This document shows positions 3,840 to 32,180 of a stretch of DNA of 60,919 nt, in pieces. The position numbers and the translations under genes are program-made. Position 1 is the stretch's first letter, and the number at the start of each line of letters is the position of its first letter. The stretch spans positions 1-60,919 of the forward strand of contig JACAAW010000006.1 in assembly GCA_013377115.1 (NCBI GenBank), given 5' to 3'. Source of the DNA: Bacteroidota bacterium (GTDB lineage Bacteria > Bacteroidota > Bacteroidia > Bacteroidales > CG2-30-32-10). The notes under the pieces were generated by a model, which was given only the letters and a program-made list of their open reading frames with translations, was not told where the DNA came from and made no database searches.

Positions 3840-5498
3840 ATGGTAAAAAATCTAACTAAAGCATTGTTCATTGCAGTAAGTATTTCAATGGTTTCGGGCT
3901 GTGGCTCAGGAACAACATCTACTAAAGAAAATAAAGATTCAACCAAAACACCTATGCAGGAAAAATTAGCGCAATTTGCCCAAGTAAAATTAAGTTCCGA
4001 CATTTCTGGTCTTTCAGAAAAAGAAAAACAAATGTTGCCTTTGCTTTTCGATGCCGCAAAAATTATGGATGAATTATTTTGGGAACAAAATCTTGGTGAT
4101 AAAAAAGCTTTTTTAGAAGGTATTAAAGATGAAGATACCAAGAAGTTTGCTATGATTAATTATGGCCCTTGGGAAAAACTTGAAAACGAAAAACCATTTA
4201 TTGAATCATACGGAGCAAAACCTGCAGGAGCGAATTTCTATCCTAAAGACATGACCAAAGAGGAATTCGAAAAATTCAAATCAAAAGACAAAACCAGTTT
4301 ATACACCATAATTCAAAGAAACGAGAAAAAAGAATTGGTTTCTGTTCCTTATCACATCGCATATAAAGAACAATTAGAAAAAGCTGCCGCTTTAGTAAAA
4401 AAAGCTGCTGAATTTGCAGAGGACAAAGACTTCAAAAAATATTTAACACTCAGAGCAGAAGCTTTATTGACTGATAATTACCAAGCCAGTGATTATGCAT
4501 GGATGGATGCAAAAACTTCCAACATTGATTTCGTTATTGGACCAATCGAAAATTATACTGACGCATTATTTGGATATAAAGCAGCTTTCGAATCTTTTAT
4601 TTTAATTAAAGATAAAGAATGGAGCAAGAAATTGGCAAAATACTCAGCAATGTTACCAGAACTTCAAAAAGGATTACCTGTTGACGAGAAGTATAAAAAA
4701 GACGTTCCTGGTTCTGAGTCTGATATTAATGTTTATGATGCAGTTTATTACGCTGGTGATTGCAACGATGGAAGCAAAACAATTGCAATTAATTTACCAA
4801 ACGACGAGCAAGTTCAGGTTAAAAAAGGTACTCGAAAACTACAACTTAAAAACTCAATGAAAGCCAAATTCGATAAAATTTTATTGCCTATTGCAAACAT
4901 GCTCATCAATAAAGATCAACTAAAAAATGTAAAATTCGATGCTTTCTTCCAAAATGTAATGTTTCATGAAGTTGCTCACGGAATGGGAATTAAAAACACC
5001 ATCAATAATAAAGGAACAGTTAGAAATGCATTAAAAGAGCAATATTCTGCAATCGAAGAAGGAAAAGCAGACATTTTAGGCCTTTACATCGTTACCAAGC
5101 TTTTTGAAAAAGGTGAAATTAAAGAAGGAACCGTAATGGATAACTATGTTACTTTCTTAGCTGGAATTTTCCGCTCAGTTCGTTTTGGAGCTGCAAGTGC
5201 TCATGGAAAAGCAAATATGGTAAGATTTTATTATTTCCAAGAAGCTGGTGCTTTTACAAGAGATAAAGATGGAACTTATGCTGTAAACTTTGATAAAATG
5301 AAAGCAGCAACGATTTCTTCTGTTCAAGAAATAATTACCATGCAAGGTGATGGAAATTATGATGCAGCTAAAAAACAAATCGAAGAAAAAGGGAGTATCA
5401 AAACCTTACTTCAAACTGATTTAGACAGATTAAAAGCAGCAAGTATACCAAAGGATATTTTCTTTGAACAAGGTAAAGAAGTTTTAGGGCTTAAGTAA
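3840..5498 (+). CDS. Dipeptidyl-peptidase III family (M49) zinc peptidase, lipoprotein
   Basis: Lipobox-like MVSGC; HEVAH and EEGKAD zinc motifs; IGPIENY, AINLPND. Confidence 0.85.
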   Translation: MVKNLTKALFIAVSISMVSGCGSGTTSTKENKDSTKTPMQEKLAQFAQVKLSSDISGLSEKEKQMLPLLFDAAKIMDELFWEQNLGDKKAFLEGIKDEDTKKFAMINYGPWEKLENEKPFIESYGAKPAGANFYPKDMTKEEFEKFKSKDKTSLYTIIQRNEKKELVSVPYHIAYKEQLEKAAALVKKAAEFAEDKDFKKYLTLRAEALLTDNYQASDYAWMDAKTSNIDFVIGPIENYTDALFGYKAAFESFILIKDKEWSKKLAKYSAMLPELQKGLPVDEKYKKDVPGSESDINVYDAVYYAGDCNDGSKTIAINLPNDEQVQVKKGTRKLQLKNSMKAKFDKILLPIANMLINKDQLKNVKFDAFFQNVMFHEVAHGMGIKNTINNKGTVRNALKEQYSAIEEGKADILGLYIVTKLFEKGEIKEGTVMDNYVTFLAGIFRSVRFGAASAHGKANMVRFYYFQEAGAFTRDKDGTYAVNFDKMKAATISSVQEIITMQGDGNYDAAKKQIEEKGSIKTLLQTDLDRLKAASIPKDIFFEQGKEVLGLK

Positions 5499-8326: not shown

Positions 8327-9325
8327 ATGGAAAACAATAAACGTTTTGCAGTAATAGGTTCGGGAAGTTGGGCTACTGCAATTGTGAAAATACTTTTAAA
8401 TAACTGCAATAAAGTTAATTGGTGGGTTCGTGAGCCTGAAGTGATGGAAAATTTAATGCTTTATCATCACAATCCTATCTATTTAAGCTCTGTTGAATTT
8501 GATATTGAACGCTTGAATATCAGCAATGATATCAATGAAATAATTGAAGTTTCGGATGTAATTATTTTTTGTATTCCATCTGCTTTTTTGCATCAATCGC
8601 TAAGTCCACTGAAAAGAGATAGCTTAAAAGGTAAGTTGATTCTCTCAGCCATTAAAGGAATTGTTCCCGAATACAATAAAATTGTGGCAGAATATTTCAA
8701 TACTGAATTTAATATTTCATTTGAAAATATTGGAATCATTAGTGGACCTTCACATGCAGAGGAAGTTGCTTTAGAAAAATTAACTTATCTAACTGTAGCT
8801 TCACAAAATCAAGATTTTGCTGAGTACATTGTTTCAAAAATAAATTGTAGGTATATTTTTGCATCTGTTTCTGATGATATTTTTGGAACTGAATATTCTG
8901 CAGTACTAAAAAATGTGGTTGCAATTGCAAACGGAATATGCATTGCCTTGGGTTATGGAGATAATTTTCAGGCGGTTCTAATTTCTAATGCCATTCAAGA
9001 AATAAAAAGATTCGTTGATGAAGTTCATCCTATTAATAGAGACATAAATAGTTCTGTTTATTTGGGAGACTTACTCGTTACTTCCTACTCACAATTTAGT
9101 CGTAACCGTACTTTTGGAAATATGATTGGCAAAGGTTATTCTGTTAAATTTGCACAATTAGAAATGAAAATGATTGCTGAGGGGTATTATGCTGTAAAAT
9201 GCATTAAGGAAATCAACGATGAACATGGAGTTGACATGCCTATTACAACAGCGGTATACAATATTTTATATTCTGGTTTTTCTCCTGAAAATGAGATAAA
9301 ACGACTAACAAAAAAATTAAGTTAA
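8327..9325 (+). CDS. gpsA: NAD(P)H-dependent glycerol-3-phosphate dehydrogenase
   Basis: GSGSWATA Rossmann motif, SGPSHAEEV, LKNVVAIA, GDLLVT.YS..SRNR. Confidence 0.93.
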   Translation: MENNKRFAVIGSGSWATAIVKILLNNCNKVNWWVREPEVMENLMLYHHNPIYLSSVEFDIERLNISNDINEIIEVSDVIIFCIPSAFLHQSLSPLKRDSLKGKLILSAIKGIVPEYNKIVAEYFNTEFNISFENIGIISGPSHAEEVALEKLTYLTVASQNQDFAEYIVSKINCRYIFASVSDDIFGTEYSAVLKNVVAIANGICIALGYGDNFQAVLISNAIQEIKRFVDEVHPINRDINSSVYLGDLLVTSYSQFSRNRTFGNMIGKGYSVKFAQLEMKMIAEGYYAVKCIKEINDEHGVDMPITTAVYNILYSGFSPENEIKRLTKKLS

Positions 9326-17479: not shown

Positions 17480-20089
17480 ATGATTTTATTGCAATACCTT
17501 CATTTTTTTTGTTTAATAACTTATGCTTTAATGGCAGGTTATGTTATTTATATCGATAGTAAATCACTGTTGAATAGGGCTTGCGCAGCGTTAATGGTTT
17601 GCTTTTTTGTTTGGTCGACTTATGAAGTTTTTGGCAATAGGGAGGGTATTTCTAAGGAGATAGCCATTCTTTTTCAGAATATTTCTTCATTTGGATGGAT
17701 TGGTTTTTCTGGAGCTCTTATCGTTTTTTCTTTAGCATTTTCGAAAAATGAAAGATTATTGAAATCAAAATTTCTTATAGTTATAATGGCTCTAATCTCA
17801 TTGGGGTTAATATTTGTGCAGTGGACAGAGGGCATGGTTGTAAATCCAGTAAAGTTGCAATTTGGTTGGGTCTTTGGTTGGTCAAATAGTTTTTGGACCT
17901 ATCTCTATTTTCTTTATTATTCCTCAATAACTTTAATTTCTATTTTTATTATTTACAACTTTCGAAAAAAAACGAATTTAGTTAGTAAGAGAAAGCAATC
18001 CAACATTTTGTTAATTACAATCACAATTTCATTAATTACGGGGACCATTTCGAATGTAATAATACCCTTGTTTTATAATATTGCAATCGTTCAGTTAGCT
18101 GATGTCTTAATAATAATTTTTGCAATTGGGCTGTTTTATTCGATAGTAAAATTTAAATTCTTAAATATTACACCTGCAATTGCTGCTGAGAACATCATTT
18201 CAACAATGTCCGAATTATTAATAATAACTGATAATGAAGGAAATATCTTGGATGTTAATAATTCCGGATTAAAAACATTGGAATATAATCAACGGGAATT
18301 AAAGGGGAAATCAATCGAGATATTATTTGGTAAAAATAAAAAGATTAAATCTTTCCTTCAAAAAGTTTCATTGGGTGAAATAATTTTAAATCAAGATGAA
18401 GAATTTATTTCAAAGAAATTAAGAATCATACCTGTAATTTATTCATGTACACCATTGAAAGATGAAGAAGGGGAAAAAAGAGGGAATGTAATTGTTGCTA
18501 GGAATATTAGCGAAAGATTGGATACCGAAAAATTATTAAAAGAAACTGAGGATAAGTACCAGTTTATTGTTGAAAATACCGATGATGTGTTGTGGCTTAT
18601 GAATAGCAACCTTCAGCTTGAATATGAAACGCCGTCAGTCTATAGATTTTTTGGTTATACTGTTGAGGAACACATGAAAATGTCTCTTGAAGAATATTTA
18701 ACTCCTGATTCCGCGCAATTAATTCAAAATGAATTTCAAGAGGGGATGATAAATTTGATGAAAAAGGACTATGCCAAACTAAGAAATAAAGCAGAACTTG
18801 AAGTTGAATTTGTTCGGAAGGATAAAACAACAGGGTTTGCAAGAATATCAATGACCATTATTCGTGATGAAGAATATCGAATATTAAAAATAAGAGGAAT
18901 TACCACAGATATTACAGAACGAAAAATTGCAGAAAAAGAACTCGTTAAAGCAAAGGAAAAAGCTGAGGAAGCTGATCGTCTAAAATCTGCTTTCCTTGCA
19001 AATATGAGTCATGAAATCCGCACCCCAATGAATGGAATTATTGGATTTGCACAACTACTAAATTTAGAAAGTACCACAACCGAAGAAAGAAAAGAATTTG
19101 TAAATATCATCAATGAAAGTGCTGATCATCTGCTAATTTTAATAAATGATATTATTGATATTGCAAAAATAGATAGCAATCAGATAGCAATCAATAAAGT
19201 AACTATAAATTTAAACCAGCTTTTAAATGATTTATTTCTCTTATACGAAAGAGAAAAAGTTCAAAAGAATAAAAGTGATATTGTTTTGGTATTAGAAAAA
19301 GCATTGCCCGACAATCAAAGCAATATTTATACCGATGATGTGAGATTAAAACAAGTATTGTATAATTTAATTAGTAATTCATTGAAATTCACTAAAGAAG
19401 GATTCATAAAATTTGGTTATACAATTGAAAATGAAGCAATACAATTTTTTGTGAAAGACACAGGAAAAGGAGTTGCAGATTCAAAGCAAAAATTGATTTT
19501 TGAGCGCTTTAGACAAGAAGAAGAATCAAATACCCGACAATATGGTGGTTCGGGTTTAGGTCTTTCTATTTCCAAAGGACTAATTGAACTTCTTGATGGA
19601 AAAATATGGATGGAATCCAGAGAAGGACATGGTGCTTCATTCTTTTTTACACTCCCAATAAATGTTATTACAAATGAGCATTCAATTGTTCGTTCTAAAG
19701 AAATTAGTTTAAAAGAGTATGATTTTAGCGGGAAAACAATTTTAGCAGTTGAAGATGTTGAAATAAATGCAATGATAATTCGTCAATATCTAAAAACAAC
19801 AAATGCAAAAGTTATTGAAGCAAAAAATGGTGATTCAGCGATTAAAATTTGTAATGAAAACGATAAAATTGATTTGGTTTTAATGGATATTTTGATGCCT
19901 ATAATGAATGGCTATGACGCAACAAAAGAAATTAGAAAAATAAGACCAAACTTGCCAATAATCGCACTTACGGCCTATGCTTATGCCGAAGACAGAGAAA
20001 AGTGCTTAAAGGCGGGATGCAATGATTTTGTGACAAAACCAATCGATTGGTCAGAATTGTATGCTGTGATTGATACTTGGTTAAAATAA
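17480..20089 (+). CDS. Hybrid sensor histidine kinase (7TM input, two PAS, HisKA, HATPase, receiver)
   Basis: Hydrophobic N-terminus; FLANMSHEIRTPMNG; NLISNSLKFT; DTGKG; GGSGLGL; receiver LMDILMP..KP; -7 box TAAATTTG 17444-17451. Confidence 0.92.
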   Translation: MILLQYLHFFCLITYALMAGYVIYIDSKSLLNRACAALMVCFFVWSTYEVFGNREGISKEIAILFQNISSFGWIGFSGALIVFSLAFSKNERLLKSKFLIVIMALISLGLIFVQWTEGMVVNPVKLQFGWVFGWSNSFWTYLYFLYYSSITLISIFIIYNFRKKTNLVSKRKQSNILLITITISLITGTISNVIIPLFYNIAIVQLADVLIIIFAIGLFYSIVKFKFLNITPAIAAENIISTMSELLIITDNEGNILDVNNSGLKTLEYNQRELKGKSIEILFGKNKKIKSFLQKVSLGEIILNQDEEFISKKLRIIPVIYSCTPLKDEEGEKRGNVIVARNISERLDTEKLLKETEDKYQFIVENTDDVLWLMNSNLQLEYETPSVYRFFGYTVEEHMKMSLEEYLTPDSAQLIQNEFQEGMINLMKKDYAKLRNKAELEVEFVRKDKTTGFARISMTIIRDEEYRILKIRGITTDITERKIAEKELVKAKEKAEEADRLKSAFLANMSHEIRTPMNGIIGFAQLLNLESTTTEERKEFVNIINESADHLLILINDIIDIAKIDSNQIAINKVTINLNQLLNDLFLLYEREKVQKNKSDIVLVLEKALPDNQSNIYTDDVRLKQVLYNLISNSLKFTKEGFIKFGYTIENEAIQFFVKDTGKGVADSKQKLIFERFRQEEESNTRQYGGSGLGLSISKGLIELLDGKIWMESREGHGASFFFTLPINVITNEHSIVRSKEISLKEYDFSGKTILAVEDVEINAMIIRQYLKTTNAKVIEAKNGDSAIKICNENDKIDLVLMDILMPIMNGYDATKEIRKIRPNLPIIALTAYAYAEDREKCLKAGCNDFVTKPIDWSELYAVIDTWLK

Positions 20090-20104: not shown

Positions 20105-21235
20105 TTATTTTGAAATAATAAAATCTTCCACATTTTTTCTCCAGGATTTGTAACTTGATTTTGCTCTACCAACTCGAACAATCATTTGGATTTTTTCTTT
20201 TGATTTAGTTTTGGTTAATTTATTAAATTCCTTTTGCAATTCTTCCATTTGAGAATATTCTTGAATAACTTGATTGTAAGGATGAGTTACGATTCCAAGC
20301 TTTGCAATAGCAACATTATAGCGGGCGTAATCTCTGCCAGCTAAAATCCAATCCAACATTGTGTTTGTATTGGTTTTAAACATGATAATTCCTTTTGAAG
20401 AATACACTCCTTTATTGATTCCTTTCATTGTTGCTTTGAAAATTTTACCACTATGCCAGGTGAGGCTATCGCCTTTTTTTAATGACATTTCTGCAAACAT
20501 TTTTCCCATGCCATCTGTTCCCATTTGTGGAATGCTAATTCCATCTTTTTTTGTTTGCCTTTCTTCTTCGTTAAAGCGAAACATCTTTCTGGTTTCTTCA
20601 TTGGTCATTTTTGTTTTAGTTTCAATTTCCATTGCTTTACTAAAAATATCCAAATAAGGCTTCATTTCTGATTCGCCTGTAATAAAAGTCATTTCACTAT
20701 GAGCCTTGTCCATTAATAATTTTATTTGATTAAATTCTTCGATAGTTATCATTTTTCCAGTATAGGGTTTTCGATTTGTGCCCCGCTGGTAAATGAAATC
20801 ATAAAGTACATCTTTTTGAATCGAAGAATTTTTTATAAAAGAAATTTTGGCCAATGGTTTTTCTGCAATTTTATTTTTCTGTATTTCATATTCACCAAAT
20901 GGGAAATATTCAACTTTGGTTTCGTAACCCTCATTTGACATTCCTATTGCCATTAGCTCAATAAAACAACCTGCTCCCATATGAATTTGCCTTGCCGGTG
21001 GATCGGTTTCAGGAAGAACATGCTTTACATAAAGCAACATTTCATTACTAGATAATGTATCAATAAACCAGCATTGTGTATTGTGTGGACTTGGTGCCGT
21101 AATCCCATAAGCAATGGCCTTTAAAACTGGAGATTTATACGCAGTTGGATTTGGTCGCTTTTCATATTGAGCATTACTCGTATTTATGGCAAAAACAAAT
21201 ATTGCCATTAAAATTAATTTAAAATTGTGGTTCAT
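20105..21235 (-). CDS. Acg-family FMN-binding nitroreductase-like protein with Sec-type signal peptide
   Basis: APSPHNTQCW, ETDPPARQ..MGAGC, RGTNRKPY, AGRDYAR, VRVGRA; start set at ATG 21235 (MNHNFK). Confidence 0.78.
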   Translation of the reverse strand: MNHNFKLILMAIFVFAINTSNAQYEKRPNPTAYKSPVLKAIAYGITAPSPHNTQCWFIDTLSSNEMLLYVKHVLPETDPPARQIHMGAGCFIELMAIGMSNEGYETKVEYFPFGEYEIQKNKIAEKPLAKISFIKNSSIQKDVLYDFIYQRGTNRKPYTGKMITIEEFNQIKLLMDKAHSEMTFITGESEMKPYLDIFSKAMEIETKTKMTNEETRKMFRFNEEERQTKKDGISIPQMGTDGMGKMFAEMSLKKGDSLTWHSGKIFKATMKGINKGVYSSKGIIMFKTNTNTMLDWILAGRDYARYNVAIAKLGIVTHPYNQVIQEYSQMEELQKEFNKLTKTKSKEKIQMIVRVGRAKSSYKSWRKNVEDFIISK

Positions 21236-28014: not shown

Positions 28015-28656
28015 CTACTGACAAACAAAATCCATTACGCAGCAAGTAGCATATTTTTTATGTGGTTGAATTGAAACTCCAATGAAATTGTATTCTTTGT
28101 CGAGGATATTATTTCGATGCCCATATCCACTAACACCATCATCTATTAATAAATCCATAACAATTGTCAGAGGATCACTATATCCATAATCGCAATTCTC
28201 ACCTCTAGAAGAAAAACTGGTTTTTAATACCGCAAATCTTTTTGTAACATCTTTGTGTCCAGTAAATCCTTCTTTTCCCATTTTTATTGCGTATTGTTTT
28301 GCAATTAAGGAAACTTCTTTTGATGGAACTAATGGTTTAAGAGCCGACTGATTTTTCAATGTCGAAAACAAAGAATTCACATAAATCGTCTTTTTCTGTT
28401 TGGTTGAGTCAATGAACTTCTGTAAATAAGTTTGAGCAAAAAGTTTTCCGTTTATTCGAGCTAAATTTGAATAAAAAATCACACTTTTTTCGTCTTTTGA
28501 TAAATAATCAGAGGTTTTGGCAGAATTGGCTGCATCTATTTCTGATTGTTTCCATTTATCAAATGGATATTTCTGTTTAATTTCCTGCGAATATACTACT
28601 GCAGAAAAGGATGATAATAATAAAAGAAAGAGTATTTTAAAAAATTGAAGTTTCAT
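28015..28656 (-). CDS. CAP (SCP-like) domain exported protein
   Basis: Signal peptide; NLAR, GH, GENCDYG, LLIDDGV..GHRNNIL. Confidence 0.85.
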   Translation of the reverse strand: MKLQFFKILFLLLLSSFSAVVYSQEIKQKYPFDKWKQSEIDAANSAKTSDYLSKDEKSVIFYSNLARINGKLFAQTYLQKFIDSTKQKKTIYVNSLFSTLKNQSALKPLVPSKEVSLIAKQYAIKMGKEGFTGHKDVTKRFAVLKTSFSSRGENCDYGYSDPLTIVMDLLIDDGVSGYGHRNNILDKEYNFIGVSIQPHKKYATCCVMDFVCQ

Positions 28657-28760: not shown

Positions 28761-28826
28761 TTAACAATTCGTTAACAAATTTATGCATTTCCTATTAAGG
28801 AAAAGATCATTTTTAGATTAATTTTG
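28761..28826 (+). promoter_or_regulatory. Promoter of the metal-transport operon with an 11-bp-period direct repeat
   Basis: TTAACAA-ttcg-TTAACAA at 28761-28778; -7 box TAATTTTG at 28819-28826. Confidence 0.5.
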
Positions 28827-28843: not shown

Positions 28844-29320
28844 TTGAAAGCAATTTTTCGAAATAGTATTATTTTTTCTTTCTTATTAATTTTTATTGCC
28901 TCAACAGGTGGTATAAATTTATATAAAAGTTTATGTTCATGCACTGGACACGAAACTATTTCTTTTTTCAAGAAAGAAAGTACATGCTCACTTCAACATA
29001 AATCAAAAGACTCTGAAAAAGAAACCAAATATTGCTGTTCGAAAAAGAAAACTTCTAAAAAAGCAAAGAAATGTTGCTCAACAACCAATAAATATTTAAA
29101 AGTACGCAGTGATTTTGATGCTTTGGATGCAGTACAAATAAAAAATCATTCAGAGGATTTCGTTTTTCTTGTTAATTTGAAGAGCATCATTACTCTTAAA
29201 TCAAAATATCTCATTAAAGAAATTGTTCCCCCAGATTCGGTGGATCCGCCTTTACTTTTCGGCAAAAACCTTGTTTTCTTTTTACATCAATTAAAAATTG
29301 ACGCCTCAGATATTGCTTAA
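28844..29320 (+). CDS. HYC_CC_PP-like Cys/Pro-rich protein preceding a TonB-dependent receptor
   Basis: N-terminal hydrophobic segment; CSC, C, CC, CC; C-terminal PPDSVDPP. GTG 28826 overlaps the -7 box, so TTG 28844 is the more likely start. Confidence 0.72.
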   Translation: MKAIFRNSIIFSFLLIFIASTGGINLYKSLCSCTGHETISFFKKESTCSLQHKSKDSEKETKYCCSKKKTSKKAKKCCSTTNKYLKVRSDFDALDAVQIKNHSEDFVFLVNLKSIITLKSKYLIKEIVPPDSVDPPLLFGKNLVFFLHQLKIDASDIA

Positions 29321-29369
29321 TTATTTCAATAATTTTCAATATTACTTATTTATTTAGGAGGCATCATTT

Positions 29370-31760
29370 ATGAAAGCATATCATTTTAAAACATTTTTAT
29401 TTATTTTACTTTTATTTGGATTTTTCAAAGGGTTTTCCCAGAATTTAACTGGAACCATTTATGAAATTGACAATGCAAAAAAGAAAGCTCCATTAACTGG
29501 CGTAAATATGTATTGGGTCGGAACTCAAATATACGCAACAACGGATGTTACTGGAAAATTTAAGATTAAAAAACCAGATACAAAAAAGCTGCAATTGGTA
29601 ATTAGTTTTGTTGGCTATAAAACAGATACCTTAACTGTTATGAAAAGTGAAAAGGATCTTGAAATTGTACTTTCTGTGAATAAAGAATTAAAAGAAGTAG
29701 TAATTCAGGCCAGTCAAGATGGTTCTTATATTTCGAAAATGAAAACCATTAAAACTGAGGTTATTACAACGGCGGGTTTGCAAAAAGCAGCCTGTTGTAA
29801 TTTGTCAGAAAGCTTCGAAACAAATGCTTCTGTCGACGTTTCATACAGCGATGCGATTACTGGGGCTAAGCAAATACAATTGCTTGGTTTATCTGGTATT
29901 TATAGTCAGATTCAAACGGAAAATATTCCTTCAATCAGAGGGATGGCATCCACATTTGGATTAAACTATATTCCTGGTTCTTGGATGGAATCGATACAAA
30001 TTTCGAAAGGAACTTCATCGGTTATCAATGGTTATGAGTCAATTACAGGACAAATTAATGTTGAATATAAAAAACCAACCACTTCAGAAAGATTGTTGGT
30101 TAATGTTTATGGTAACCAGAATCAACGACTTGAAGCAAACGTAACCAGTGCGTTTAAACTCAATAAAAAATTAAGTACCATGTTGATGATTCATGCCGAA
30201 GATTTTTCTGAGAAAATTAACAATATCGATTCTACAACAATCAATTTGAATGGAGAAAAAGTGAATCTTGGTGAAAATTTTATGGATTTGCCACTTGTTA
30301 CTTCCTATAATATTTTCAATCGTTGGGAATATTCTACAAAAAGATGGGAATCTAGATTTGGAATCAAATATATGAATGAAGACCGCAGAGGTGGAACCAT
30401 GGATTATAATAAAAACACCTTTGTTTTAGATACCTCAAAGATAAATTCAAAATCATTGCCTTATGGTTTTGGATTGAAAACCAATCGCGCTGAAGCCTTT
30501 TGGAAAAATGGGTTTATGTTTCCAGACAAACCATATAAAAGTGTAGGTTTAATATTATCAGGAGTTTATCATGATCAAAAAGGTTTTTTTGGAGTAAATG
30601 ATTATTATGGGAAAGAGCAAAGTCTTTATGCCAATCTAATTTATCAATCAATAATTGGAAATACAAATCATAAATTTTCTACTGGATTAAGTTATTTATA
30701 TGATAATTACGAGGAAGGATATGATCAAACACAATTTAGATATTTGTACCAAGTAAATTCTTATCCTGTTGGCGCATCGGCACCAATGTATGATATTACC
30801 ACCCTTTATGATTACAGACATGTAAAGTATAATTGGGACAGAATGGAATCAGTTCCTGGAGCATTTTTTGAATATACTTATAACTATCTGACAACCTTTA
30901 CATTAATTGCTGGAATTAGAGCTGATTACCACAATAAATACGGCTTATTTTATACTCCTCGCACCAATATGAGATGGCAAATTAATGAAGGTCTGACTGT
31001 TAGAGCCTCTGCTGGATTAGGTTATAGAACTGCAAATATTATTTCGGAAAATTTATCATTATTGGCCAGTCAGAGAATTTTATTGGTTGAAGAACCATTG
31101 AAACAAGAAAAAGCAGCCAATTATGGAATCAATATTACAAAAGATTTTAGATTGTTTAAAAACAAAGCCCAATTTACTTTAGATTTTTATCGTACTGATT
31201 TTATGAATCAGGTAATAGTTGATTTAGATAGAGATCCAACGACAGCTTATTTTTATAATCTCAGAGGTAAGTCATATTCAAATAGTTATCAGGCACAATT
31301 AACTATTGAACCTCTAAAACACTTGACAATTTTGATGGCATATAGAATAAATGATGCTAAAACAACAATAGACAGTGTTTTACAAGAAAGATTGTTGCAA
31401 AATAAATACAAAGGCTTGCTTAATATTTCCTACGCAACAAATTTTGAGAAATGGAAATTTGATTTCACTTCACAATTTAATGGAAGTGCAAGAATTTCGC
31501 CTCAAGAAAAAATGCCTGAGATTGTGAGACGAGATTATGAAAGAACCCCAGAATACATCATTCTAAATGCGCAAATAACAAAGAAATTTAGACATGATAT
31601 TGATGTTTATGTAGGTGTTGAAAATTTGACTAATTTTAAGCAAAAAGATCCAATTACAGAAGCATTTATTCCTTACCATACTCATTTTGATACTACAATG
31701 GCATGGGGTCCGATTATTGGTAGAGTTATTTATGCCGGAATGAGATTTAGTATTAAATAA
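29370..31760 (+). CDS. TonB-dependent receptor, metal-associated subfamily
   Basis: CarboxypepD_reg-like N-domain; plug with AACCNLSESFETN; C-terminal YAGMRFSIK; upstream of an HMA gene. Confidence 0.9.
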   Translation: MKAYHFKTFLFILLLFGFFKGFSQNLTGTIYEIDNAKKKAPLTGVNMYWVGTQIYATTDVTGKFKIKKPDTKKLQLVISFVGYKTDTLTVMKSEKDLEIVLSVNKELKEVVIQASQDGSYISKMKTIKTEVITTAGLQKAACCNLSESFETNASVDVSYSDAITGAKQIQLLGLSGIYSQIQTENIPSIRGMASTFGLNYIPGSWMESIQISKGTSSVINGYESITGQINVEYKKPTTSERLLVNVYGNQNQRLEANVTSAFKLNKKLSTMLMIHAEDFSEKINNIDSTTINLNGEKVNLGENFMDLPLVTSYNIFNRWEYSTKRWESRFGIKYMNEDRRGGTMDYNKNTFVLDTSKINSKSLPYGFGLKTNRAEAFWKNGFMFPDKPYKSVGLILSGVYHDQKGFFGVNDYYGKEQSLYANLIYQSIIGNTNHKFSTGLSYLYDNYEEGYDQTQFRYLYQVNSYPVGASAPMYDITTLYDYRHVKYNWDRMESVPGAFFEYTYNYLTTFTLIAGIRADYHNKYGLFYTPRTNMRWQINEGLTVRASAGLGYRTANIISENLSLLASQRILLVEEPLKQEKAANYGINITKDFRLFKNKAQFTLDFYRTDFMNQVIVDLDRDPTTAYFYNLRGKSYSNSYQAQLTIEPLKHLTILMAYRINDAKTTIDSVLQERLLQNKYKGLLNISYATNFEKWKFDFTSQFNGSARISPQEKMPEIVRRDYERTPEYIILNAQITKKFRHDIDVYVGVENLTNFKQKDPITEAFIPYHTHFDTTMAWGPIIGRVIYAGMRFSIK

Positions 31761-31796: not shown

Positions 31797-32150
31797 ATGA
31801 AAAACTTAGCAAAATTATTCGTTGTAGTAATTGTGGTTTTATCACAAGTGTCTTGTGCACAAAGCAATAAAAAAACAGCCGAAATTAAAATTAAAACATC
31901 TGCAGTTTGTGGTATGTGCAAAGAAAAAATTGAAAAAGAACTGCAATTTGAAAAAGGTGTAACTGCAGTTACCTTGGATTCTGAAACAAAAATCTGCACA
32001 ATTACTTACAAAACAGAAAAAACCACTCCTGAGAAATTGAGATTGGCCATTTCTAAAATTGGTTACGATGCCGACGAAGTTTTAGCCGATCCAAAGGCAT
32101 ATGAAAAACTTTCGCCCTGCTGTAAAAAAGATGCTGGGATGCATGAATAA
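31797..32150 (+). CDS. Exported heavy-metal-associated (HMA, MerP/CopZ-like) protein
   Basis: Signal peptide; CGMC metal motif; GY; C-terminal YEKLSPCC. Confidence 0.88.
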   Translation: MKNLAKLFVVVIVVLSQVSCAQSNKKTAEIKIKTSAVCGMCKEKIEKELQFEKGVTAVTLDSETKICTITYKTEKTTPEKLRLAISKIGYDADEVLADPKAYEKLSPCCKKDAGMHE

Positions 32151-32180
32151 AAAAAAGGTTCTCGATTGAGAACCTTTTTT
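32151..32180 (+). terminator. Rho-independent terminator ending the metal operon
   Basis: aaaaaaggttctc-gatt-gagaacctttttt. Confidence 0.88.

Follow-up and report, generated by a model that had tools for sequence, protein, structure and literature searches.

The closest described systems to the locus examined here are CutF of Rhodobacter capsulatus and CruR of Bordetella pertussis, both of which are DUF2946 leader proteins. As the passages of the cited papers drawn on here describe it, the cutFOG messenger carries a stem-loop that covers the next gene's ribosome-binding site and is opened by the ribosome at the end of the leader, while rapid degradation or undetectability of the leader protein is reported (PMC9973294; bioRxiv 10.1101/2025.02.05.636593). 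In cruR-bfrG/crtA-bp2921, copper relieves an arrest at a RAPP motif, and Rho-dependent termination occurs before the gene of a TonB-dependent transporter (PMC9426467); this control is described as post-transcriptional and cis-acting (PMC9426467; PMC12914433). Here we analyzed 60,919 nucleotides (nt) of a Bacteroidota bacterium (CG2-30-32-10; assembly GCA_013377115.1, contig JACAAW010000006.1, positions 1-60,919 of the forward strand), referred to in full as the window, which contains an operon of three genes encoding a small Cys-rich leader, a TonB-dependent receptor and a small HMA-domain protein. An earlier note on this DNA had proposed that the last codons of the leader pair over the receptor start in a metal-sensing switch analogous to CutF and CruR. 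We judge this analogy apt and, from sequence comparison and from the two precedents, consider it reasonably probable that the leader functions as a cis-acting translational switch of this kind, in which a ribosome on the 3' end of the leader would unmask the receptor start.

Similar to CutF and CruR, the leader is the first gene of a metal-linked operon, encodes an N-terminal helix and has a promoter box only on its 5' side, and a predicted, co-varying mRNA structure lies over the downstream start within reach of a ribosome at the end of the leader. DUF2946 is defined by CxxC/CxxxC together with RAPP/PPP within the last ~15 residues, the two being ~45 residues apart; the window leader has CxC and CC pairs instead, and DUF2946 was matched by none of 50 aligned leader relatives at E<=1. 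As no relationship to DUF2946 is detectable and as the motifs, the spacings and the position of the helix differ, we class the window leader as a protein that works like these leaders and not as a member of their family.

The predicted, co-varying helix between leader end and receptor start

Loci were fetched with the N-terminal 350 residues of the receptor, 80 from species genomes and 65 from metagenomes. Of the 80 genome loci, 75 have an open reading frame (ORF) resembling the HYC_CC_PP family immediately 5' of the receptor and on its strand, and the leader-receptor pair is also present in 7/7 loci from relatives. Spacers between the two genes range from 42 to 467 nt, mostly 55-130 nt, and the spacer in the window measures 49 nt. 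Left out of the counts were duplicates (L003, L004, L007, L009 and L011-L014), one locus with no receptor (L017), loci whose receptor start could not be picked (L006, L008, L041, L131, L132, L136, L142, L156 and L160) and loci with doubtful start picks (L054, L067, L079, L097, L138 and L154, and L178 and L182 of the canonical set described below).

Pairing between the two ends of the spacer was assessed with an alignment-free co-variation test, in which each 5' window (stop-24 to stop+15) was compared with every 3' window (ATG-24 to ATG+6). For 76 loci, cognate duplexes averaged -11.05 kcal/mol and non-cognate ones -6.69 kcal/mol, with 0/5000 permutations as low. When 124 loci were collapsed to 93 clusters, the corresponding means were -11.20 and -6.94 kcal/mol (0/10,000 permutations as low), and the 27 new metagenome representatives alone gave a mean of -11.4 kcal/mol. 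The predicted helix between leader end and receptor start is thus kept through sequence change in most loci, and conservation of the stem over junctions of this type, which the earlier note had put forward as a check, was confirmed. When about 400 nt upstream were scanned without bias, the segment pairing best with the start region was centred between -20 and +15 of the leader stop in 35 of the 76 loci.

Folding of the junctions (stop-30 to ATG+15; 64 loci, 60 shuffles per locus, spacers >135 nt excluded) gave a mean z of -2.5, with z < -1.64 in 43 of the 64, and the start region (-14 to +2) is paired with the end of the leader beyond shuffles (p<=0.05) in 29 of them. The architecture common to these loci is a long-range helix in which the final codons and the stop of the leader are joined to the stretch of 10-20 nt that precedes the ATG, with one or two hairpins nested inside it; arm sequences vary from lineage to lineage, and the inner hairpins are unrelated in sequence. 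A scan of 10 junction loci with Rfam returned no family except an unrelated tRNA in L026. Most Bacteroidota genes are translated without Shine-Dalgarno (SD) pairing, and translational control in the phylum is poorly understood. Only 24 of the 93 start regions contain an SD-like 4-mer, which indicates that the masked element is usually the start region and not the SD.

The geometry was measured on the 66 representatives whose duplex is at least as strong as -10 kcal/mol, the ranges being set in part by the searched windows. With the stop as reference, the 5' arm extends from -13 to +6 (medians), and it includes at least part of the stop codon in 49/66; with the ATG as reference, the 3' arm extends from -17.5 to +3, and it touches the ATG in 44/66. 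The 5' arm begins within the 5-7 variable codons of the tail, a median of 4 nt past the I codon that is conserved in (L/I/M)-K-I-P.

Terminator-like GC hairpins with a T-run were identified in 16 of 93 spacers against about 1.8 expected from shuffles, which suggests that attenuation may contribute in some lineages. All of them (L018, L028, L032, L035, L036, L074 and 10 others) are nested in the long-range helix. Together with the CruR precedent of copper-triggered Rho-dependent termination between leader and receptor, this enrichment is consistent with a junction that acts mainly on the transcript, by attenuation, termination or processing/stability, with masking of initiation as a secondary effect. 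We consider this improbable, since no terminator-like site was found between leader and receptor in the window or in 77 of the 93 spacers, and since the 3' arm keeps its place at the start codon (its end lies within -6 to +5 of the ATG in 63/66 loci), a placement that termination does not need.

In the window itself, the junction hairpin of the earlier note was recovered at its coordinates, and the ORF, the Cys residues, PPDSVDPP, AGGAGG, the ATG and the inner stems had all been read correctly. RNAfold of 29280-29385, which had been set beforehand as a check, reproduces the hairpin with a minimum free energy (MFE) of -13.5 kcal/mol (z -1.93; 7/200 shuffles as good, p about 0.035). The MFE outer helix pairs 29299-29301 and 29303-29307 with 29358-29362 and 29364-29366 and covers four bases of AGGAGG; pairing of the outer stem therefore stands, but its proposed extent does not, as the helix stops 3 nt before the ATG and omits 29295-29298 and 29367-29369. 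An 86-nt core fold gave -13.0 kcal/mol (z -2.06; 8/200 shuffles as good), and the core helix is kept in both the MFE and the centroid structure of a 221-nt context. The duplex between stop region and start region has -12.1 kcal/mol, a value reached by 5 of 487 co-directional junctions of the same genome (mean -5.4, sd 2.4), as called from crude ORFs with ATG starts only. Stronger stop/start duplexes, of -14.1 to -14.8 kcal/mol, occur at three other junctions of this genome, on contigs C79 (about 20305-20394), C78 (about 4648-4776) and C269 (about 8725-8852).

With a z of only about -2, 7-8 of 200 shuffles that fold as well, inner stems made purely of A/U pairs and 12% of foreign 5' arms pairing equally with its 3' arm, the window hairpin might be taken for a chance A/T-rich palindrome joined to a short GC match and devoid of function. 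This is very improbable. The arrangement recurs throughout the family with different sequences, the window duplex is in the top 1% of same-genome junctions, and 0/75 foreign 3' arms match the window 5' arm as well. A near-identical strain from a public sequencing run carries C29365T, a natural variant that changes a G-C pair of the helix to G-U and retains the pair. The single RNA run listed among the sequencing data yielded no contig at this locus.

The leader protein, its family and the genes that follow it

The window leader has no Pfam (E<=0.01) or NCBIfam match of its own, a word-based homologue search found only the leader itself, and NF047658 ('HYC_CC_PP family protein') was not matched even at E<=10, its curated cut-off being 28 bits. 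An exhaustive phmmer search retrieved 132 cluster representatives at E<=1e-3, of 108-195 residues, most of which match end to end. Among 50 aligned relatives, 37 match NF047658 at E<=0.01 (best 2.6e-15), and a scan of five relatives from neighbouring genomes with this model gave four scores of 19.8-25.4 bits, below the cut-off, and one relative with no match. Through these recognised members, the window leader is by sequence a divergent relative of the HYC_CC_PP family, in agreement with the earlier note.

Members of this family are small Bacteroidota proteins that share with the window leader an N-terminal hydrophobic helix, a (Y/H)xCxC-like motif, CC pairs and PP. The family name, which we take to denote H/Y-x-C near the membrane helix, CC, and PP near the C-terminus, has its counterparts in the window leader as Y-K-S-L-C-S-C (with the H replaced), CC at 64/65 and 77/78, and PP at 135/136. 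Proteins of the window subfamily exceed NF047658 members in length (median 158 aa) and in the tail that follows PP. The nearest protein-atlas clusters are labelled DUF8199 (PF26622) automatically (score 0.95-0.96; family in 40-65% of cluster members), and DUF8199 was assigned to 0/50 alignment members in the Pfam version used, which perhaps predates PF26622. The names HYC_CC_PP/NF047658 and DUF8199 did not occur in the literature searched.

In the 50-sequence alignment, G23, C31, C48 and C77 are invariant and C64, C65, C78, P136 and G140 nearly so, these last three Cys being present in at least 90% of the sequences. The C-terminal consensus is PPPxxGKxLLxxLHQLKI, the commonest C-terminal motifs of the family are IKIP, LKIP, MKIP and PKIP, and the C-terminal sequence of the window leader is GKNLVFFLHQLKIDASDIA. 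Two spacings are regular: the last CC and PP are 54-57 residues apart in 77 of 117 relatives over poorly conserved intervening sequence, and the median distance of PP from the C-terminus is 22 residues, with PP inside the last 15 residues in only 4/117. An AlphaFold2 model of the leader, with a predicted local distance difference test score (pLDDT) of 71, consists of a confident membrane helix, a small Cys-bearing sheet, a poorly modelled middle and a C-terminal helix (residues 141-149); Foldseek found no match for it in the PDB at E<=0.001.

The canonical HYC_CC_PP model matches 46 of 201 sampled Bacteroidota genomes, about a quarter. Thirty canonical loci were fetched, and the downstream ORF, callable in 29, encodes a TonB receptor in 8, an RND (ACR_tran) pump in 11 and an HMA or HMBD protein in 5; the others are 1 DUF3347 protein, 1 beta-propeller protein and 3 small proteins with no Pfam match. 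Cognate duplexes at 23 of these loci average -10.37 kcal/mol against -6.29 kcal/mol for non-cognate ones (0/10,000 permutations), four loci with spacers >135 nt and one with no downstream ORF being omitted from the test, and the 5' arm usually begins at the stop codon. As the leader family precedes both import and export genes, a sensor fits better than a dedicated partner.

The helix geometry would fit equally well with plain translational coupling without sensing, in which the leader acts in trans as a small, stable membrane protein (an envelope partner for metal binding or redox, for example) and the helix only ties receptor synthesis to that of the leader. Conserved Cys, a moderately confident predicted fold and conservation of the full-length protein in 132 clusters are consistent with such a role, and coupling may be of use where initiation on structured mRNAs that lack an SD is poor, as in this phylum. 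We regard it as rather unlikely because the same family heads systems of opposite function (receptors, RND efflux pumps and HMA proteins) and because the leader is always promoter-proximal. Moreover, the fixed CC-to-PP spacing over non-conserved sequence resembles a nascent-chain ruler, and conservation of the C-terminal block extends as far as the 5' arm.

A possible metal-responsive switch and its relation to known leaders

In the cis-acting switch that we favor, the leader's last codons and stop would pair in the mRNA with the 10-20 nt before, and often including, the receptor start codon, so that the receptor initiation region would be masked by default. A ribosome on the 3' end of the leader would hold the 5' arm in its mRNA channel, and the receptor start would thereby be freed for initiation or re-initiation; the key ribosome positions would be the 5-7 codons that follow K-I-P, and the stop codon. 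On the model of CutF and CruR, the leader may be inserted or exported co-translationally via its N-terminal helix, and the metal or redox state of the periplasmic Cys-rich part would then alter ribosome dwell at the C-terminal block. With the sign that we prefer, metal-dependent folding would pull the chain out and shorten the dwell, and the uptake receptor would be OFF when metal is plentiful. We infer cis action, metal sensing and arrest, as well as the sign of the regulation and which metal is involved.

Several observations weigh against such a switch. PP is too distant from the helix to act on it directly (in the window it lies about 45 nt 5' of the 5' arm), and the proposal of the earlier note that ribosome progress past PP opens the stem is opposed by this geometry. 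Direct opening of the helix by a PP-stalled ribosome was therefore rejected; a ribosome stalled there would leave the helix closed and the receptor off, and a regulatory pause with a helix-opening effect, if there is one, has to fall on the K-I-P tail or the stop. With its pLDDT of 71, the model of the leader is that of a small, partly folded protein, which could be stable and trans-acting. In the window, the hairpin only modestly beats shuffles (z about -1.9 to -2.1), the start-occlusion score is not significant alone (p 0.10), and the 221-nt context is overall unremarkable (z 0.04). Across loci, the best duplex is weaker than -10 kcal/mol in 27/93 cluster representatives, spacers >=140 nt are mostly without the helix (mean -8.0 kcal/mol, 1/14 significant), and RNAalifold on a 15-sequence MAFFT junction alignment gave 0 consensus pairs, because the helix register shifts between lineages. 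No leader match was found 5' of the receptor orthologue in 5/80 genome loci (one flank being too short), and the leader was undetected in 9/65 metagenome loci, of which three have <=145 nt upstream and one, L099, has the leader C-terminus by eye.

The leader ORF was undetected despite >1 kb of upstream sequence at L100, L110, L123, L127 and L140 from metagenomes and L024, L031, L063 and L078 from genomes. These nine loci indicate that the receptor can occur without the leader.

Like CutF, as described in the parts of the reports consulted, the leader is encoded by the small first gene of a metal operon and has an N-terminal export signal, a Cys motif and a C-terminal Pro motif. Different from CutF, to which the window leader family has no detectable sequence relationship, PP lies about 22 residues from the C-terminus here and within the last 15 in CutF-like proteins, and the last Cys pair is about 55 residues from PP as opposed to 45. 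The 5' arm is within the leader's last codons and stop, whereas that of CutF is only in the spacer; the downstream gene encodes an uptake receptor and not a detoxifying oxidase; and the start region rather than the SD is usually masked.

The published catalogue of CutF-like proteins was filtered for <150 aa and PP within the last 15 residues, and it reports such proteins in Bacteroidota as well as TonB-like neighbours; in sections 10-13 and the searched passages of that paper, a conserved helix for the Bacteroidota proteins is not mentioned (PMC9973294). Filters on length and PP position would exclude most of the window subfamily. Judging from these filters and from the C-termini, canonical HYC_CC_PP proteins are probably among the published Bacteroidota CutF-like set, and the longer window subfamily mostly is not.

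CruR, in the portions of its reports drawn on here, likewise is the exported Cys/Pro leader of an operon of three genes, where it is followed by a copper-linked TonB-dependent transporter (PMC9426467; PMC12914433), and the fixed CxxC-RAPP spacing of DUF2946 (PMC9426467) has a parallel in the CC-PP ruler seen here. CruR differs in its 162-nt spacer and in RAPP, which lies three residues from its C-terminus and is absent from the window leader; the conserved feature here is the start-masking helix, and the third gene encodes an HMA protein instead of PepSY_TM. SecM, MifM and VemP, as outlined in passages of PMC9973294, also combine an exported or membrane-inserted leader and a conserved C-terminal segment with a stem-loop over the downstream start that a paused ribosome opens (PMC9973294). 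They sense translocation activity and regulate Sec/YidC, whereas here the downstream genes are metal-related, the leader is Cys-rich and arrest would be a presumed step.

Extension of the switch to the whole family is a more tentative proposal, with prospects that are nearly balanced and lean slightly to the doubtful side. HYC_CC_PP/DUF8199 leaders might constitute phylum-wide co-translational envelope metal sensors, with an origin independent of DUF2946, that head import (TonB) or export (RND, HMA) operons, with a helix between the stop region and an SD-less start and with CC-PP (~55) and PP-stop (~22) rulers timing the pull of the Cys domain on a C-terminal arrest segment. If so, it would be the first cis-translational metal switch described for Bacteroidota, a phylum in which annotations of metal uptake and efflux genes mostly come with no known regulator. 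The family, found in about a quarter of the Bacteroidota genomes sampled, would then be a self-contained sensor-switch, recognisable from sequence alone by its leader, fixed spacings and stop/start helix. The principle of CutF and CruR, whereby the ribosome is informed of periplasmic metal by the nascent exported peptide that it carries, would extend to an unrelated family with a different RNA geometry, providing a natural comparison for what is essential in such switches.

Operon layout, feature coordinates and neighbouring genes

Leader, TonB receptor and HMA protein form one operon, in which the leader is promoter-proximal and a single candidate promoter lies just 5' of it. TAnnTTTG is the -7 consensus of Bacteroidota promoters, and the copy in the window is TAATTTTG. 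Of 92 related loci, 81 have the box within 120 nt 5' of the leader start, and its positions peak sharply at -25; only 2/92 have it inside the leader-receptor spacer, and a promoter of the receptor's own within the spacer was rejected on this count. The operon is closed by a hairpin that is a perfect 13-bp palindrome between A-runs and T-runs (Table 1).

Table 1. Features of the leader-receptor-HMA operon, with positions in the window.
Feature	Positions	Strand	Remarks
Candidate Bacteroidota -7 promoter box TAnnTTTG	28819..28826	+	starts 25 nt 5' of leader start codon
Leader ORF, divergent HYC_CC_PP-type small Cys-rich protein	28844..29320	+	158 aa; TTG start; stop TAA 29318-29320
N-terminal hydrophobic helix, residues 2-22, putative membrane anchor or export signal	28847..28909	+	AlphaFold2 pLDDT about 90; basic residues before
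Cys-rich segment: C31, C33, C48, C64/65, C77/78	28934..29077	+	presumed periplasmic, metal- or disulfide-forming
PPDSVDPP	29228..29251	+	conserved PP of the family is P135-P136 at 29246-29251
Conserved C-terminal block GKNLVFFLHQLKI, candidate arrest-like segment	29261..29299	+	family consensus GKxLLxxLHQLKI(P)
Predicted 5' arm of masking helix, in leader's last codons (I-D-A-S)	29299..29307	+	MFE and centroid
Predicted inner A/U-rich nested hairpins enclosing leader stop	29309..29343	+	29310-15/29337-42 and 29319-24/29329-34
Receptor initiation region	29356..29372	+	AGGAGG 29356-61; 3' arm 29358-29366; ATG 29370-72
TonB-dependent receptor: CarbopepD_reg_2, Plug and barrel	29370..31760	+	Pfam
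Small HMA-domain protein	31797..32150	+	Pfam HMA, E 9e-13
Bidirectional intrinsic-terminator-like hairpin, directly 3' of HMA gene	32151..32180	both	closes the three-gene operon

The plug domain of the receptor contains the motif ACCNL(S/A)ESF at about residues 140-160, which is present in 123/123 orthologous N-terminal parts and whose Cys-Cys pair is a candidate metal site. In the HMA protein, the N-terminal hydrophobic segment ends in Cys and is lipoprotein-like as judged by eye. An HMA orthologue is encoded on the same strand about 2.5-3 kb 3' of the leader in 9 related genomes.

A second HMA-domain paralogue with 43% identity is encoded elsewhere in the same genome (G000:C263:8377-8658). 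The related genome at L017 (G007:C142, about 18609-19601) has a second, shorter leader-like ORF that is followed ~550 nt later by an HMA gene, the receptor being absent between them. The divergent neighbour of the operon in the window (28015-28656, - strand) encodes a secreted CAP/YkwD-like protein with no apparent tie to it.

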